Source: Nitrospirota bacterium
GTDB taxonomy: Bacteria; Nitrospirota; UBA9217
Length of the DNA stretch: 64,000 nucleotides
Direction of reading: 5' to 3'
NCBI GenBank assembly: GCA_963740085.1
Contig: CAVUCU010000004.1
Coordinates: 160,001 to 224,000 of the forward strand
Positions 33,387-38,582 of the stretch are shown here, piece by piece (the stretch's first letter is position 1; the number at the start of each line of letters is the position of its first letter). The position numbers and the translations under genes are program-made. The notes under the pieces were generated by a model. It saw only the letters and a list, made by a program, of their open reading frames with translations. It made no database searches and had not been told where the DNA came from.

Positions 33387-33865
33387 GCATCTCCCATCTC
33401 GGTCGCGGACATTTTGTCAACGAATTATCCCATGCAGTATACCATAAACAGCGTCACGAGAGAAAGGGAAATTATGAAAGATCCTCATCATGAGCTTCTC
33501 ACTGTTTAACCGGATGGACTTATTGACGGCATTCCTTTTTCGAAAAACAGGTCACCGGATGATCGAGGATTTCGTTACTCCTGTATCCTTGCGAGGGACG
33601 ACACGGCATATTGCGGTCACCGTGAAGAAGAAGAGCGGTTGTTTACGCGGTAAATATCCTTAAGGAATCAAGATTGGGATCGTGAAACGTTTTTTTTCTC
33701 CGTCTCGTGATATTTTTCAGCGCAGAGTCTGCGCTGAATGCAAAACCATTTAAAATGGTATTTTAGCCGTTTATACTAGTTAATATGGTGTTAATATTTT
33801 ATATGTGGATTTAACTGTTGATAAATTGTCTAACATACGGAAACATAATTTCTTTTATTTTCTTG

Positions 33866-33900
33866 TTGACAAAACATACACTCTTATAGTATATTTTGTC
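33866..33900 (+). promoter_or_regulatory. sigma70 promoter overlapped by a palindromic operator
   Basis: TTGACA at 33866, TATATT at 33890; GACAAAACATAC-N9-GTATATTTTGTC (11/12 inverted). Confidence 0.7.
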
Positions 33901-33917
33901 TACGAGGTGAATAAAAC

Positions 33918-34484
33918 GTGCTGACAAAACTCTTCTCTTCGACCAGAGCGGAGCTTTTAGGCCTGTTCTTTAATAATCCTGATGATCGCTTCTATTTGAG
34001 AGAGATAGCGCGCCATATCGGAAAAGATGCGGCGGGGATTAAACGGGAGCTCGACAAGCTGGTAAAAATAGGGCTTCTGGCAATAGAGAAACGAGGCGTT
34101 CAGAAGTACTATTTCGCAAATAAGAACTCTCCAATCTTCTCGGAGATGAAAGGGCTGATCTTTAAAACCACGGGAGTGCAGGGTGCCATGAAGACCTCGC
34201 TTTCCCGACTGAAAGGGGTCAAGACGGCATTTATCTACGGGTCCTATGCCAAGGGGGCTGAAAAAGAGGACAGCAACATTAACCTCATGGTTGTCGGCCA
34301 GGCGAACATCACGGAACTAAACGATATGGTCATGGGTCTTGAGGAGAAGTTGAAACGGGACATTGATTACCTTGTCTTCGATGAACAGGAATATAAAAAG
34401 CGCAAGGAGTTAAGGGATCCCTTTATTCGGGAATTATTGAAGGGTAAAAAGATTTTCCTGATAGGTAAGGAAGATGAACTATAA
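33918..34484 (+). CDS. winged-HTH plus minimal nucleotidyltransferase-fold protein, catalytic DxD replaced by NxN
   Basis: FYLREIAR...IKRELDKL HTH; AFIYGSYAKG...DSNINLMVVG. Confidence 0.85.
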   Translation: MLTKLFSSTRAELLGLFFNNPDDRFYLREIARHIGKDAAGIKRELDKLVKIGLLAIEKRGVQKYYFANKNSPIFSEMKGLIFKTTGVQGAMKTSLSRLKGVKTAFIYGSYAKGAEKEDSNINLMVVGQANITELNDMVMGLEEKLKRDIDYLVFDEQEYKKRKELRDPFIRELLKGKKIFLIGKEDEL

Positions 34485-34959
34485 AGAGCTCAAAGAAATG
34501 GGGATTGTCGAGGAGCGTACCGCTGATATCGCCGAGGTCATCGCCCTGGTGACAAGGGCGGAACGGGACCTGGCAACGAGCAGGGTCTTGTATGATAAAG
34601 ATGAAGAGTGGGCTTTTGCGGCCGCTTACCAGGCCATGGCCCGTTCAGGAAAGGCGCTTATCCTGTCTGAGGGATTGAGAACCAGGGGTGTCCGCGGCAG
34701 GGATGCTCAAAAGACCGTGGTGACGGCAGCGGGCGTCATCCTGGGCGAACAGTACAAGAGTCTGATCAATAAATTCGACCGAATGAGAAGGAAGTATCAG
34801 AGCTTTGTCGAGGATGCCGGCAGGATCATCTCACGATACGAGGCGGGGCAGGCGATCAAGGACGCAGAAGAATTTATTGCCCTCGTGAACGGACGGATCC
34901 GCGAGAAGTATTCACAGATGTCACTGCTGAATGATGTTCCTCAGCTTGTTTCAAGATAA
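34474..34959 (+). CDS. HEPN-fold protein lacking the RNase motif
   Basis: AERDL...WAFAAAYQAM...FDRMRRK...AIKDAEEFI helical pattern; overlaps the upstream gene by 11 nt. Confidence 0.8.
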   Translation: MNYKELKEMGIVEERTADIAEVIALVTRAERDLATSRVLYDKDEEWAFAAAYQAMARSGKALILSEGLRTRGVRGRDAQKTVVTAAGVILGEQYKSLINKFDRMRRKYQSFVEDAGRIISRYEAGQAIKDAEEFIALVNGRIREKYSQMSLLNDVPQLVSR

Positions 34960-35007
34960 GGCCGCTTGGGTCAAAAACGCGGTATGCCGAAAGGGGGTGG
35001 GCAAATA

Positions 35008-35073
35008 ATGGCAGCTAAGAAGAAAGCAGCTAAGAAGAAAGCGACCAAGAAGAAAGCAACCAAGAAGAAGTAG
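35008..35073 (+). CDS. 21-aa Lys/Ala-rich micropeptide MAAKKKAAKKKATKKKATKKK
   Basis: GAAAGGGGGTG SD; ATG...TAG; four 15-nt units with third-position variation. Confidence 0.75.
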   Translation: MAAKKKAAKKKATKKKATKKK

Positions 35074-35221
35074 CTTTTTTTGAAGTCCCTGGAGTGGGAC
35101 TGCCGGGGGCATGAATGCCCCCGGCGTATTTACTGCAAGCGATTGTGCTGCCGGCATGTCCGGCCTCATGCATCTTTTTATAATGGGTCGATTTCCTGCG
35201 AGTGAAAGGGGGTGAAAATCC

Positions 35222-35281
35222 ATGGCTGCAAAGAAGAAGGCCCCGGCAAAGAAGGCGAAAAAGACGACCAAAAAGAAATAA
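35222..35281 (+). CDS. 19-aa Lys/Ala-rich micropeptide MAAKKKAPAKKAKKTTKKK
   Basis: Same GAAAGGGGGTG SD; same MAAKKKA start written with different synonymous codons. Confidence 0.75.
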   Translation: MAAKKKAPAKKAKKTTKKK

Positions 35282-35324
35282 GGTGATAGATGGAGATTCA
35301 TTATTATTAATGATTGAAACTCTG

Positions 35325-35355
35325 CCACGAAGAAAATCTTCGTGGTTTTGTTTTT
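35325..35355 (+). terminator. intrinsic terminator
   Basis: CCACGAAGA-AAA-TCTTCGTGG followed by TTTTGTTTTT. Confidence 0.8.
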
Positions 35356-35893
35356 CCACAAGAAGACGAGCATGTTTTCCTTTATTAAAACAGATGCAAT
35401 ATATACTGACACTGTTCTGTCCCTCACCCCCTCGTCATTGCGGCTCGACTGAGCGAGTCGAAATCTCAATGCAGCGTTATTCTCTCCCCGGTGGCGAGAG
35501 GGGAATTCCGCAGGAACGCAGCAATTATTGCTGATCTCATTAAAAGTCATGATCGAGCGCCGGGACACGGAGAATGCCCTTTGAAACAATATGGATTTTT
35601 TCTGCGCCCTCCGGGCCTCTGCGGTAAAATTTGACTCATTGCGAATGGAGCCGTTATTCTTTTTTCTATTATTTCCTTTGTAATAGGTCCGGGATGGGCG
35701 CATCGGCCGGGGATGAAACTAAGAGGGACATTTACACATGGAAGCCCCGGATTTATCATGGGATAAAAACGGATGAAAAAAGAGTCAATATTCGTTATAA
35801 TCCGTCAGCCAAAGGGTAAACTGCATTCCCGGAATAAAGACGACCTTATCCGGGTCTTCTCTGCGTTAATCCGCGGCAATTTCTTTTTAACTC

Positions 35894-36232
35894 ATGACGG
35901 TATCAATGCGTAAACGCAACTATTTAAAGACAGAGCGGAGTTCCCGGAGAGCCCGTTGGAAAGCGCCCCTTATTGCCGCAGGCGTTCTCCTCGTGCTCTA
36001 CTTTCTGGTCACGCGCGTCATGGGTGAGATGGGAGTGGTAAAATACTATCGGATGAAGGCTCAATACACCGCACTGACGAATGATATCGCCAAACTCAAG
36101 CAGGACAACGGCAAACTCAGGAAGGAAGTCTTCTCTCTCAAAAGCGATTCCGCCTATCTCGAAAGGGTGGCCCGTGATAAACTGGGGCTTGCGCGTCCGG
36201 GAGAGATAGTGTACTATTACGGTGAACCGTGA
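35894..36232 (+). CDS. ftsB: septum formation initiator (FtsB/DivIC family)
   Basis: TM helix, coiled coil, YLERVARDKLGLARPGE. Confidence 0.85.
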   Translation: MTVSMRKRNYLKTERSSRRARWKAPLIAAGVLLVLYFLVTRVMGEMGVVKYYRMKAQYTALTNDIAKLKQDNGKLRKEVFSLKSDSAYLERVARDKLGLARPGEIVYYYGEP

Positions 36233-36377
36233 GAGTTGCAAATCCGAATTTCTCATCCCCAAAATTCCAACCGCAGGACCGGAATTCAAATGATGAAATC
36301 TGTTTTCTGCCCGGTTCGTCGGGATGTTGAACGCTGGGAACCTTGGACTACTCATTTGACTTCGTCTGTATGTATCT

Positions 36378-38582
36378 ATGTCTGACCATCCTCTCTATAT
36401 AGCCTTCGTCTGGCACATGCACCAGCCTTACTATAAGGACGACAACACAGGTTCCTATATCCTGCCCTGGGTGCGATTGCACGGAATCAAGGACTACTAC
36501 GACATGCCGGCCCTTCTGAACGATTTCCCCGATATTCACCAGACGTTCAATCTTGTTCCTTCCCTGCTCAAGCAGATTCAGGACTATGTGGAGAATAATG
36601 CCCGGGACAAGTCTCTTAGCCTGACGCTCAAGCCGGCCTCGGAACTTGATCAAGACGATAAAATGTATCTGCTGAGGAACTTTTTCATGGCAAACTGGGA
36701 CACCATGATCAGGCCTTATCCCGCCTACTGGCAGCTGCTCGACCGCAGGGGCTACAGTGTTTCACCGAATGACCTAATAAACGCTACTCGCTACTACACC
36801 ACCCGGGACTATCTCGATCTCCAGGTCTGGTTCAATCTCACCTGGTTCGATCCGCTTTTTATTAACAAAGACCCGTTCCTCAAGGGGTTGGTGAAGAAGG
36901 GATCGGGCTTCACCGAGAATGAGAAGGCGCTTCTCATCCAGAAGCAGCATGAGGTCATGGCGCTCATCATCCCCGAGTACAGGCGGCTCGCCGGGATCGG
37001 CAGGATAGAGCTTACGACCACACCCTTTTATCACCCGATCCTGCCGCTCCTCTACGACACTGATCTTGCGAAGGCCGCAATTCCCGATATTCATCTCCCG
37101 GTCAACCGTTTTTCGCATCCTGAGGACGCCAAGGTCCAGATCGACAGGGCGATGGCCTACCACGAGAAGCTCTTCGGTTCAAGGCCCAGGGGCATGTGGC
37201 CTTCCGAGGGCGCGGTGGCCGAGGAAATCGTGCCGCTCCTTGCCGACGCAGGGATCCAGTGGATCGGCACGGACGAGGGAGTGCTTGCCCGTTCGCTCGG
37301 CATCCACATCGATCGCGATTTCGACGGCGTCATGAAAAATCCAGAGGTGCTTTACAAACCCTACCGTGTGGGCAAAGGCGATAAACGCCTTTCCATCGTG
37401 TTTCGGGACCACACCCTCTCCGACCTTATTGGTTTTGTGTATTCCAAATGGGACACCAAGAACGCTGTTCATGATCTGGTCGATCGCCTGCATCGCGTGC
37501 GACGCGGACTTTCTGACGGGCCACACCTGGTCTCGATCATTCTGGACGGCGAGAACGCATGGGAATATTACCAGAATGACGGCAGGGATTTCTTCCTCAG
37601 GCTCTATGAACGGCTCAGCGGCGAGCAGGGTCTCCGGTGCGTGACTGTCGGAGAATACCTCAAGTTGAATCCCGCACAGACGAACATTGAACATCTCCAT
37701 GCAGGCTCGTGGATCAATGCGAATTATCGCATCTGGATCGGTCACGAGGAGGACAACCGGGCATGGGACCTCCTCACGCAAACGCGTGAGGCGCTGACGG
37801 AGTATGCGTCCCGGGACGGCGATGCGGACAGGATCTCGAGGGCATGGGAGGAGATCTACATCGCTGAAGGGAGCGACTGGTGCTGGTGGTACGGCGACGA
37901 CCACTTCTCCGAGAACGATGAGGAGTTTGACCTTCTCTATAGAACACATTTAATGAACGTTTACCGCATCCTCGGCCTTGATGTACCCGACGAACTTCAG
38001 ATATCGATCCTTCGCGAGGACAGGCAGGCGCTGCCGACGGTGGAGCTTACAGCATTTATCACGCCGACCATCGACGGCCAGATCACGAATTACTTTGAAT
38101 GGCTGCCCGCGGGTTTCTATGATGTGAGCCAGGGAGGAGGGGCCATGCACCGCGGTGCGTCCATTATTACGCACATCTACTACGGCTTCGACCTCAAAAA
38201 CATGTTCATACGCCTCGACCCGAGCGGAGATCTCAGGGAAGAAAAGGTCGCCGATCTGGCGTTCTTCGTCAATTTTCTGGATCCCAAGGGCTTTGACGTG
38301 GAAATGCGTGTTGTTCCGCACGATCGACGGGTCAGCGCAGCGCTTTCCCGCGGTCAGAGCGGCGCCCGGCGCCAGATCGCCGTGATACACACCGTTGCCG
38401 CGAACGAGATCATTGAACTCGCCGTGCCCTTCGACCTGCTCGGTGTAAAGCCGAACGATGAGATACATTTTTTTGTCACGGTTGAGCGCTCGGGTTCGGA
38501 GGTGGAAAAGTGGCCTTCCCGCGGGTATATCCAGTTCAAGGTACCGACCGACGATTTCGAGGCGACGATGTGGCAGGTGTAG
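36378..38582 (+). CDS. glycoside hydrolase family 57 (amylopullulanase-like)
   Basis: WHMHQPYY, HPILPL, GMWPSE, LDGENAWE, AEGSDWCWW. Confidence 0.94.
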   Translation: MSDHPLYIAFVWHMHQPYYKDDNTGSYILPWVRLHGIKDYYDMPALLNDFPDIHQTFNLVPSLLKQIQDYVENNARDKSLSLTLKPASELDQDDKMYLLRNFFMANWDTMIRPYPAYWQLLDRRGYSVSPNDLINATRYYTTRDYLDLQVWFNLTWFDPLFINKDPFLKGLVKKGSGFTENEKALLIQKQHEVMALIIPEYRRLAGIGRIELTTTPFYHPILPLLYDTDLAKAAIPDIHLPVNRFSHPEDAKVQIDRAMAYHEKLFGSRPRGMWPSEGAVAEEIVPLLADAGIQWIGTDEGVLARSLGIHIDRDFDGVMKNPEVLYKPYRVGKGDKRLSIVFRDHTLSDLIGFVYSKWDTKNAVHDLVDRLHRVRRGLSDGPHLVSIILDGENAWEYYQNDGRDFFLRLYERLSGEQGLRCVTVGEYLKLNPAQTNIEHLHAGSWINANYRIWIGHEEDNRAWDLLTQTREALTEYASRDGDADRISRAWEEIYIAEGSDWCWWYGDDHFSENDEEFDLLYRTHLMNVYRILGLDVPDELQISILREDRQALPTVELTAFITPTIDGQITNYFEWLPAGFYDVSQGGGAMHRGASIITHIYYGFDLKNMFIRLDPSGDLREEKVADLAFFVNFLDPKGFDVEMRVVPHDRRVSAALSRGQSGARRQIAVIHTVAANEIIELAVPFDLLGVKPNDEIHFFVTVERSGSEVEKWPSRGYIQFKVPTDDFEATMWQV

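Follow-up and report, generated by a model that had tools for sequence, protein, structure and literature searches.

Tandem lysine-rich micro-genes behind a winged-helix pseudo-nucleotidyltransferase gene in Nitrospirota: candidates for free-standing polycations

Can the lysine-rich tail of a histone-like protein exist in bacteria as a gene of its own? This question is raised by two very short open reading frames (ORFs), ORF1 and ORF2, in a 64,000-nt stretch of the genome of a Nitrospirota bacterium (assembly GCA_963740085.1, contig CAVUCU010000004.1, positions 160,001 to 224,000), which is called the window in the following. They encode 21 and 19 amino acids (aa) and follow a gene for a winged-helix protein with a minimal nucleotidyltransferase (MNT) fold and a HEPN gene. 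Here, we describe that both ORFs are, judged from their conservation, real micro-genes and the local form of a module that is spread over the phylum. Their products are, with a probability of about 55%, abundant free-standing polycations like histone H1 tails or PAKKA tails, which, next to the winged-helix protein, would bind to DNA or some other polyanion.

Two lysine-rich micro-ORFs and their conservation

The ORFs and the signals around them are as follows.

34989-34999, plus strand: Shine-Dalgarno (SD) sequence of ORF1, GAAAGGGGGTG, 8 nt 5' of the ATG, conserved in relatives
35008-35073, plus strand: ORF1, 21 aa, MAAKKKAAKKKATKKKATKKK, starting ATG GCA GCT AAG AAG AAA, TAG stop
35084-35101, plus strand: hairpin 1, AGTCCC, loop TGGAGT, GGGACT
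35101-35126, plus strand: hairpin 2, GC-rich stem GCCGGGGGC / GCCCCCGGC, then only GTATTT
35204-35214, plus strand: SD sequence of ORF2, GAAAGGGGGTG, 7 nt 5' of the ATG, conserved in relatives
35222-35281, plus strand: ORF2, 19 aa, MAAKKKAPAKKAKKTTKKK, starting ATG GCT GCA AAG AAG AAG, TAA stop
35324-35356, plus strand: predicted intrinsic terminator of ORF2, hairpin at 35324-35346, GCCACGAAG, loop, CTTCGTGG(T), then TTTTGTTTTT

Re-reading of positions 34700-35600 confirmed the coordinates, sequences and composition that the original prediction, made from this stretch by itself, had given for the two ORFs. Lysine accounts for 12 of the 21 residues of ORF1 and for 10 of the 19 residues of ORF2, both are free of aspartate and glutamate, and the net charges are +12 and +10. 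The identical strong SD sequences before both ORFs were also found as predicted, and so were the two hairpins between them, AGTCCC/GGGACT and an inverted repeat, GCCGGGGGCAT/ATGCCCCCGGC, contained in the stretch of hairpin 2. The 3' end of the 16S rRNA of this genome, GGATCACCTCCTTTCT, pairs with GAAAGGGGGTG over 11 bp including one G.U pair. In the window GAAAGGGGGTG has only these two matches, even at one mismatch. Taken alone this is not significant, since 41 of 100 shuffles of the window reach at least two matches at no more than one mismatch, but the whole arrangement of SD sequence plus ORF is far beyond chance. The word AAGGGGGTG occurs 28 times in the 3.46-Mb genome and has a start codon 4-10 nt behind it in only eight cases; three of these eight are Lys-rich micro-ORFs, namely ORF1, ORF2 and a third one on another contig.

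The original prediction took the different synonymous codons at the two starts as a sign of selection on the peptide and proposed to look for the pattern of SD sequence, spacer and ATGGC in related genomes. Two sets were searched, a first, narrower one of 41 relatives, 24 of them from the family of the window, and a phylum sample of 401 Nitrospirota genomes with 63 members of this family. In the first set the pattern ATGGCNGCNAARAARAARGC matches 21 of 41 genomes (18 of 24 in the family) and its reversed control none. In the phylum sample the wider pattern ATGSCNGCNAARAARAARGC matches 85 of 401 genomes (57 of 63 in the family), with two matches of the reversed control in all; some of the matches outside the family are ordinary long proteins or ORFs that are not Lys-rich (L001, L085-L090, L095).

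Among all loci fetched, 66 distinct DNA sequences of ORF1 encode 31 peptides and 33 distinct sequences of ORF2 encode 18; a single peptide, MAAKKKAKKKATKKKATKKK, is encoded by 15 different DNA sequences. The changes are distributed over the codon positions and the three frames as follows.

ORF1, 63-nt set (n = 17): variable sites at codon positions 1/2/3, 4/3/14; synonymous to non-synonymous changes 53:6, in the other two frames 3:57 and 0:58
ORF2, 57-nt set (n = 12): variable sites at codon positions 1/2/3, 7/6/16; synonymous to non-synonymous changes 39:9, in the other two frames 3:46 and 0:48

The 60- and 66-nt sets, in which peptide types are mixed, are less clean (50:31, 20:14 and 69:32) and give the same contrast between frames. 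Length changes among relatives keep the frame. Both ORFs and their SD sequences align well among relatives; the 150-nt spacer between the ORFs aligns poorly. Because variation is concentrated at third positions and synonymous changes are in excess in this frame only, both ORFs are, on comparative evidence, under selection at the level of the protein, and we regard ORF1 and ORF2 as real micro-genes. The selection claimed from the two starts alone is thus borne out, and the frame-preserving conservation in relatives, on which the original prediction had made itself depend, was found.

Two frames on the minus strand, 34951-35703 (250 aa) and 35030-35359 (109 aa), run across the same region. They are most likely not genes but antisense artefacts of the Lys codons, since they are Phe/Leu-rich mirrors of these codons and cross the non-conserved, indel-bearing spacer. 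Antisense frames of this kind could mislead gene callers.

At the place of hairpin 1, relatives carry a hairpin of the GTCCC...GGGAC type with a variable loop, which was left out of the RNAalifold consensus. In 44 sequences hairpin 2 has a consensus stem of 10 pairs, five of which show compensatory double changes, and only one further copy of this type is present in the genome. As only about three T follow the stem, hairpin 2 is treated as a putative partial terminator or 3'-end stabiliser. The motif of the terminator behind ORF2, CCACGAAG...CTTCGTGG TTTTGTTT, is visible in the aligned relatives. An Rfam scan of 33400-36400 at E values up to 1 gave no family; a chance-level match to PK-repBA lies on the opposite strand and reaches 19 bits, against a gathering threshold of 45. 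The 547-nt gap between the terminator of ORF2 and ftsB holds a dispersed repeat of about 100 nt (35520-35645 of the window) with three further copies in the genome at 71-79% identity; the same gap of the compared relatives is without this repeat.

A module with a winged-helix pseudo-nucleotidyltransferase

What the original prediction missed is the constant link of the Lys-rich ORFs to the winged-helix/MNT(-HEPN) genes, as well as a third paralogue in the genome, which is described in the last section. The upstream part of the module consists of the following features.

33815-33834, plus strand: upstream box CTGTTGATAAATTGTCTAAC, about 30 nt 5' of the -35 element, nearly invariant by eye among distinct upstream sequences of the own family
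33866-33895, plus strand: sigma-70-like promoter, read by eye, TTGACA (33866-33871), 18 nt, TATATT (33890-33895)
33918-34484, plus strand: winged-helix/MNT gene, 188 aa, GTG start, predicted ArsR/SmtB-type winged helix and C-terminal MNT fold
34474-34959, plus strand: HEPN gene, 161 aa, 11-nt overlap with the MNT gene, PF05168 at 36.8 bits

The gene order winged-helix/MNT, HEPN, ORF1, ORF2, ftsB (35894-36232) and a GH57 gene is conserved in the own family. Over the same loci identity is 81-99% for MNT, 71-100% for HEPN and 55-100% for FtsB; the two upstream proteins are thus better conserved in the family than FtsB. For a wider view we used 58 loci anchored on the MNT gene, taken from a species-representative genome collection, and 77 phylum loci picked by the winged-helix/MNT gene. 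The latter comprise the 30 best matches, 40 loci covering the families, chosen by hand from the match table, and seven loci added via HEPN matches.

In 76 of the 77 phylum loci, the winged-helix/MNT gene has Lys/Ala/Thr/Pro ORFs downstream of it, one to three in number and 13-142 aa long, and the sole locus without one stops at the contig end. In a 70-locus subset, 69 loci have a Lys-rich ORF that starts 13-115 nt past the MNT stop (past the HEPN stop in the own family). Each of the seven added loci (families f2, f6, f14 and f38) contains MNT and HEPN together with one to three Lys-rich ORFs, which are 15-19 aa long. ORF1 was found in 53 of the 58 anchored loci; four of the missing ones end too early and one belongs to another phylum (L082). 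A peptide of the ORF2 type (…KKAPAKKAKK…) is present in 50 of the 58, with six loci ending too early. Three Lys-rich ORFs are present in three of the 58, and two in tandem are found in family f11. The lengths extend from 13 aa (MAAKKKAAKKKKK) up to 138-142 aa of (KKTVAKKAAT)-like repeats, and the repeat units in relatives are (AKKK)n, (KKKTTA)n and (PAKKA)n. Since composition is kept over this whole range, it is the composition of the peptide and not its length that is conserved.

Of the 401 sampled genomes, 172 match the profile of the MNT protein. The protein is present in families f1 (58/63), f11 (35/35), f26 (13/13), f24 (13/14), f4 (7/7) and f27 (7/9) and was not found in f9 (0/76), f17 (0/40), f10 (0/28) and f16 (0/14). 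The winged-helix/MNT gene looks like a single-copy, vertically inherited gene. The HEPN gene, with the query used here, is restricted to f1, f2, f6, f14 and a few other families. In the loci examined outside this HEPN-bearing group, the gene 5' of MNT varies by family, and in the six loci read for flanking ORFs a convergent lpxC follows directly 3' of the Lys-rich ORF, which is thus the last gene of its unit. As the flanks vary among families, the pairing of Lys-rich ORF and winged-helix gene outlasts changes of the neighbourhood. The synteny leads us to conclude that the window ORFs represent the local version of a module found across the phylum.

The 188-aa protein matches Pfam families PF18765 (34.8 bits) and PF01909 (25.4 bits) and, weakly, helix-turn-helix (HTH) families; the matches to PF18765 and, in the HEPN protein, to PF05168 exceed their cut-offs. 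The source annotations read 'predicted nucleotidyltransferase / transcriptional regulator with HTH domain' and 'UPF0332 family'. An AlphaFold (AF2) model built from a 44-sequence alignment (predicted local distance difference test, pLDDT, 86.5) places a winged helix at the N-terminus and an alpha/beta domain at the C-terminus. Foldseek aligned it with ArsR/SmtB-type repressors and with MntA/MNT/HI0073 chains, each covering about half of the protein; the structural matches include 7bxo, 8xeh and 1no5. The nucleotidyltransferase motif reads GS...S-N-I-N in the window protein and S-D-I-D in the solved structure 2rff, so that the MntA motif G[GS]...DxD is not found in the window protein. None of the 44 aligned MNT homologues has the first catalytic Asp; at the second motif position, 27 of them carry Asp and 15 carry Asn, and Ser follows the invariant Gly in six only. 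The Rx4-6H RNase motif is absent from the HEPN protein, which does not contain a single histidine.

To judge from these losses, the winged-helix/MNT protein is a highly conserved pseudo-enzyme whose catalytic motif has been lost, and the MNT-HEPN pair appears to be a domesticated module that is non-catalytic and has been fused to a DNA-binding domain. As in the type VII toxin-antitoxin pair HepT-MntA and the nucleotidyltransferase pair HI0073/HI0074, MNT and HEPN are encoded by adjacent, overlapping genes. Unlike in HepT-MntA, the MNT domain is fused to an ArsR-type winged helix, the catalytic Asp and the HEPN His are missing, on which grounds an active pair of this type was rejected, and the two genes are single-copy, highly conserved and apparently vertically inherited. 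Both proteins are basic (isoelectric points, pI, of 9.5 for winged-helix/MNT and 9.1 for HEPN), and a role as acidic chaperone or antitoxin is for this reason not favoured.

An inverted repeat, GACAAAA (33868-33874) / TTTTGTC (33894-33900), overlaps the promoter, which is close to consensus. A T-rich tract, GTTGACAAA and a TATAAT-like box are kept, as read by eye, 5' of the winged-helix gene in the own family and in most other-family loci. The upstream box CTGTTGATAAATTGTCTAAC and the inverted repeat are candidate operators for autoregulation.

In family f9, where the MNT profile was not found, a pattern of five Lys codons plus stop matches once in each of three of five genomes. The matches (L211:910-1560, L212 and L213) are ORFs of 12-13 aa that start with TTG, encode peptides of the ATKKAA(A)KKKKK type and have the SD sequence GAAAGGGGGTGA or GAAGGGGGGTGA; a hairpin arm, GCGCCGGGGG, and then a convergent lpxC follow downstream. 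Upstream of each lies a gene whose 173-aa product has a coiled coil and a HARE-HTH winged helix (PF05066, 39.7 bits). This Nitrospira-type micro-ORF has the same SD sequence as the others and an M-A-T-K-K start. Homology between the HARE-HTH protein and the MNT protein was looked for and not found (hhalign probability 1%), and the 83-aa N-terminal piece had no match in five genomes from f9, f17, f10 and f16. The micro-ORF, its SD sequence and its place beside lpxC appear to be older than either winged-helix partner. The Nitrospira-type arrangement is compatible with functional pairing and also with mere inheritance of position.

Proposed free-standing polycations and competing explanations

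The ORFs, their signals, the conservation of their coding sequences and the synteny can be read directly from the genomes; translation, abundance, DNA as target and cooperation with the winged-helix protein are what we infer from them, in the following way. A strong promoter would drive one unit of winged-helix/dead-MNT, HEPN, Lys-rich ORF 1 and Lys-rich ORF 2, which would end at the terminator. The unusually long SD helix would drive translation of each ORF. The initiator Met is likely removed before Ala, which would leave unstructured polycations of about 2.1-2.3 kDa and +10 to +12, composed of AKKK and PAKKA-like units and chemically like the C-terminal tail of linker histone H1. These would bind electrostatically and without specificity to a polyanion, most probably chromosomal DNA, to which the constant DNA-binding neighbour points. 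The bound DNA would be neutralised, bridged or condensed, next to or with the basic winged-helix protein made from the same transcript. That composition is kept while length (13-142 aa) and copy number (1-3) vary is what one would expect of a function based on charge.

The histone-tail- or protamine-like polycation that the original prediction had put first is still the reading that appears to fit best, and relatives of up to 138 aa weakly match H1-like models. Long relatives reach E values of 1e-9 to 1e-5 and 13.6-38.4 bits with the models NF038052 and NF038053 (cut-offs 80 and 135), and 18.1 bits with PF07382 (cut-off 40). Proteins of the Hc2, H1-like and AlgP kind have roughly 100-350 aa. 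Chlamydial Hc2/HctB (PF07382, NF038052), the Burkholderia-type H1-like proteins (NF038053) and AlgP consist, as here, of Lys/Ala(/Pro/Thr) repeats in variable number without acidic residues; the difference is that here free micro-ORFs of 13-23 aa stand in tandem and are tied to a winged-helix/MNT operon. For Hc2, variation of the repeat number has been reported (PMC2848022). The KKAPAKKA-type units of ORF2 and many relatives are also found in the PAKKA/AKKA tails of actinobacterial HupB (MDP1) and Ku, and for Ku of M. smegmatis, DNA binding is reported to be modulated by its lysine-rich PAKKA repeats (PMC3553676). In HupB and Ku, however, the tail forms one protein with a folded DNA-binding domain, whereas here it would be a separate product encoded beside the gene of a DNA-binding protein. 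Bacterial Lys/Ala-rich H1-like proteins are thus already known; new here, as far as titles and abstract openings tell, are the free 13-23-aa versions and the tandem micro-genes fixed behind a winged-helix pseudo-nucleotidyltransferase. Full-text literature searches brought up no description of the peptides or the module in these parts of the articles.

Several points weigh against free polycations. The H1-like matches are all below threshold and may reflect composition only. ORF1 has no Pfam or NCBIfam match at E values up to 1 (the 19-aa ORF2 is below the 20-aa minimum of the scan). Eleven exact peptides, three short and eight long Lys-rich ones, are absent from a collection of 15 billion proteins, so that the Lys-rich ORFs have no support from gene callers; for the long peptides, a different called start could explain the absence. 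The own-family locus L081 has no ORF2 in the stretch searched, and the Gracilibacteria homologue of MNT (L082, 34% identity) is without a Lys-rich ORF. Hairpin 2 has no U-tract. The synteny may in part be an inherited position beside lpxC rather than functional coupling. Finally, at a length of only 13-21 residues, the affinity of the peptides for DNA may be too low to matter unless they are very abundant.

A bolder form of the polycation reading, put forward tentatively, is that of a chromatin module resembling a split linker histone. One transcript would yield a winged-helix protein and, encoded separately, one to three oligolysine tails; these would act jointly with the protein on DNA, and the peptide would be a detachable tail with tunable dosage. 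The partner would have been swapped (ArsR-type winged helix with dead MNT versus coiled coil with HARE-HTH in the Nitrospira type), with the micro-ORF, its SD sequence and its place kept. Eukaryotic linker histone H1 has the winged helix and the Lys-rich tail in one protein, whereas here they would be two products of one operon; a tail-only H1 exists in some protists. The winged helix of linker histones is of the H15/GH1 family and the one here of the ArsR/SmtB type. H15/GH1 is not among the Pfam matches of the 188-aa protein, which are ArsR-type and other HTH families, ArsR/SmtB repressors are its best structural matches, and the likeness is an analogy only, with common descent unsupported. 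Should the tails indeed be split off, the peptide would be the ancient core of the system and one case of widespread, unannotated, gene-encoded polycations of 12-30 residues.

The peptides could also be dedicated partners of the winged-helix/MNT(-HEPN) proteins themselves, be it as a basic tail that acts in trans and tunes how the regulator binds DNA, as a ligand of the dead nucleotide pocket or as the harmful part, restrained by its neighbours, of a toxin-antitoxin-like unit that has been domesticated. Adjacency in 76 of 77 loci across families with differing flanks argues for such a bond, as do the 11-nt overlap of MNT and HEPN known from type VII pairs, the conservation of both above that of FtsB, and the inverted repeat over the promoter, which suggests autoregulation. 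Nevertheless, we consider this unlikely. With the Asp missing in 44 of 44 MNT proteins and a His-free HEPN, the chemistry of HepT-MntA is not available, and two basic proteins would be poor binders of a +12 peptide. The MNT gene is single-copy and looks vertically inherited, the Nitrospira-type micro-ORF keeps its place behind an unrelated winged-helix gene, and certain variants of ORF1 lack Ser, Thr and Tyr altogether as residues that could be modified.

Tiny basic ribosomal peptides exist in other lineages, and eL41, bTHX, bS22 and bL37, with 20-35 aa, are Lys- or Arg-rich and bind RNA. Size, extreme basicity and the very strong SD sequences would suit peptides of this style, which fill grooves of the rRNA or act as RNA chaperones or condensers instead of binding DNA, and a DEAD-box helicase gene lies upstream on the opposite strand. 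Those proteins, however, are fixed in length and sequence and usually single-copy; the Lys-rich peptides are between 13 and 142 aa long and occur in one to three copies across families, and their family is of low complexity without a fixed motif, lies outside any ribosomal-protein operon and belongs to a module found in 172 of 401 sampled genomes of the phylum. bS21 is encoded by two genes, which leaves no obvious vacancy and excludes a replacement for a missing bS21. We therefore regard this explanation as rather improbable. Of the RNA- or ribosome-binding role suggested in the original prediction, it is the ribosome component that has become less likely, given variable length and copy number; RNA binding as such is kept within this alternative. 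A substitute for polyamines was considered as well and rejected, as speD and speE are present and adjacent.

That the peptides bind or organise another polyanion such as polyphosphate granules seems improbable to us. AlgP of Pseudomonas, a histone H1-like protein with the same chemistry, has been reported as a binder and organiser of polyphosphate granules (PMC9239181), and conservation of charge only would be in line with such a task. The operon, on the other hand, contains no polyphosphate gene (a search for linkage to ppk or other polyphosphate genes was not made), and the constant neighbour has a DNA-binding fold.

Very improbable is a cis-acting translated leader, as the original prediction had also considered, in which the transit of the ribosome over the Lys codons senses lysyl-tRNA or stalling and sets termination at the hairpins or mRNA stability, the peptide itself being irrelevant. 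Twelve Lys codons, two hairpins beginning 11 nt past the stop, the conservation of hairpin 2 with compensatory changes and a region that folds better than shuffled sequences (z = -3.9) would be expected of a leader. However, a convergent lpxC lies downstream in six other-family and three Nitrospira-type loci, where nothing is left to regulate, and in the window ORF2, ftsB and GH57 follow, none of them a lysine gene. The ORF grows up to 142 aa in some families with its composition kept, ordinary terminators stand behind ORF2 and the third paralogue, and the Rfam scan was negative. A single-sequence fold gave a weak pairing of the Lys codons with the U-run past the stop; a conserved alternative pairing was not seen, hairpin 2 being the sole conserved structure recovered. 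That the region is not translated at all, but is a purine-rich RNA element or a set of chance ORFs, would explain why protein databases and gene callers give no support but is hardly credible given the third-position variation with a synonymous excess in this frame only, length changes that respect the frame in 66 and 33 distinct sequences and an SD sequence and start codon conserved across the phylum.

If free polycations are indeed made from ORF1 and ORF2, few known gene-encoded nucleoid or polyanion-binding proteins would be as small, and the peptides would be fixed in a whole environmentally important, mostly uncultured lineage of Nitrospirota and tied to a conserved winged-helix protein with a pseudo-enzyme nucleotidyltransferase domain. 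Gene callers skip ORFs of this length and trypsin destroys their products, and a conserved and probably abundant class of polycations in the cell may thus be invisible in annotations and proteomes, which is an argument for composition-aware calling of micro-ORFs in annotation pipelines. The module could reveal the working of free 'histone tails' in bacteria.

Further Lys-rich ORFs in the same genome

The third Lys-rich micro-ORF lies outside the window on the minus strand (G000:C5:104581-104646) and encodes 21 aa, MACGKKCGTKKAVKKKATKKK, behind the SD sequence AAGGGGGTG. It is located 3' of a ribF-like gene, as recognised by eye from the translated end of this gene, and is followed by a hairpin of its own, an ordinary terminator. 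Its MACGKKCGT start with two Cys is found in 19 of 64 genomes of the family, in eight of 19 genera, with synonymous changes, and in the 12 loci read a hairpin is present downstream, mostly with a T-run.

Two longer proteins encoded outside the window carry tails of similar composition. The first (G000:C1:934105-934446, minus strand, 113 aa) has a Cys-rich, zinc-ribbon-like N-terminal part (CxxC ... CC) and a 65-residue KKKPAKKK/AKKK tail, with a GC-rich terminator behind the gene, and would be a fused counterpart of the free Lys-rich peptides. The second (G000:C1:274514-274858, plus strand, 114 aa) combines a membrane anchor and a coiled coil with a KPKPKP...KKTPKKKVTKK tail.

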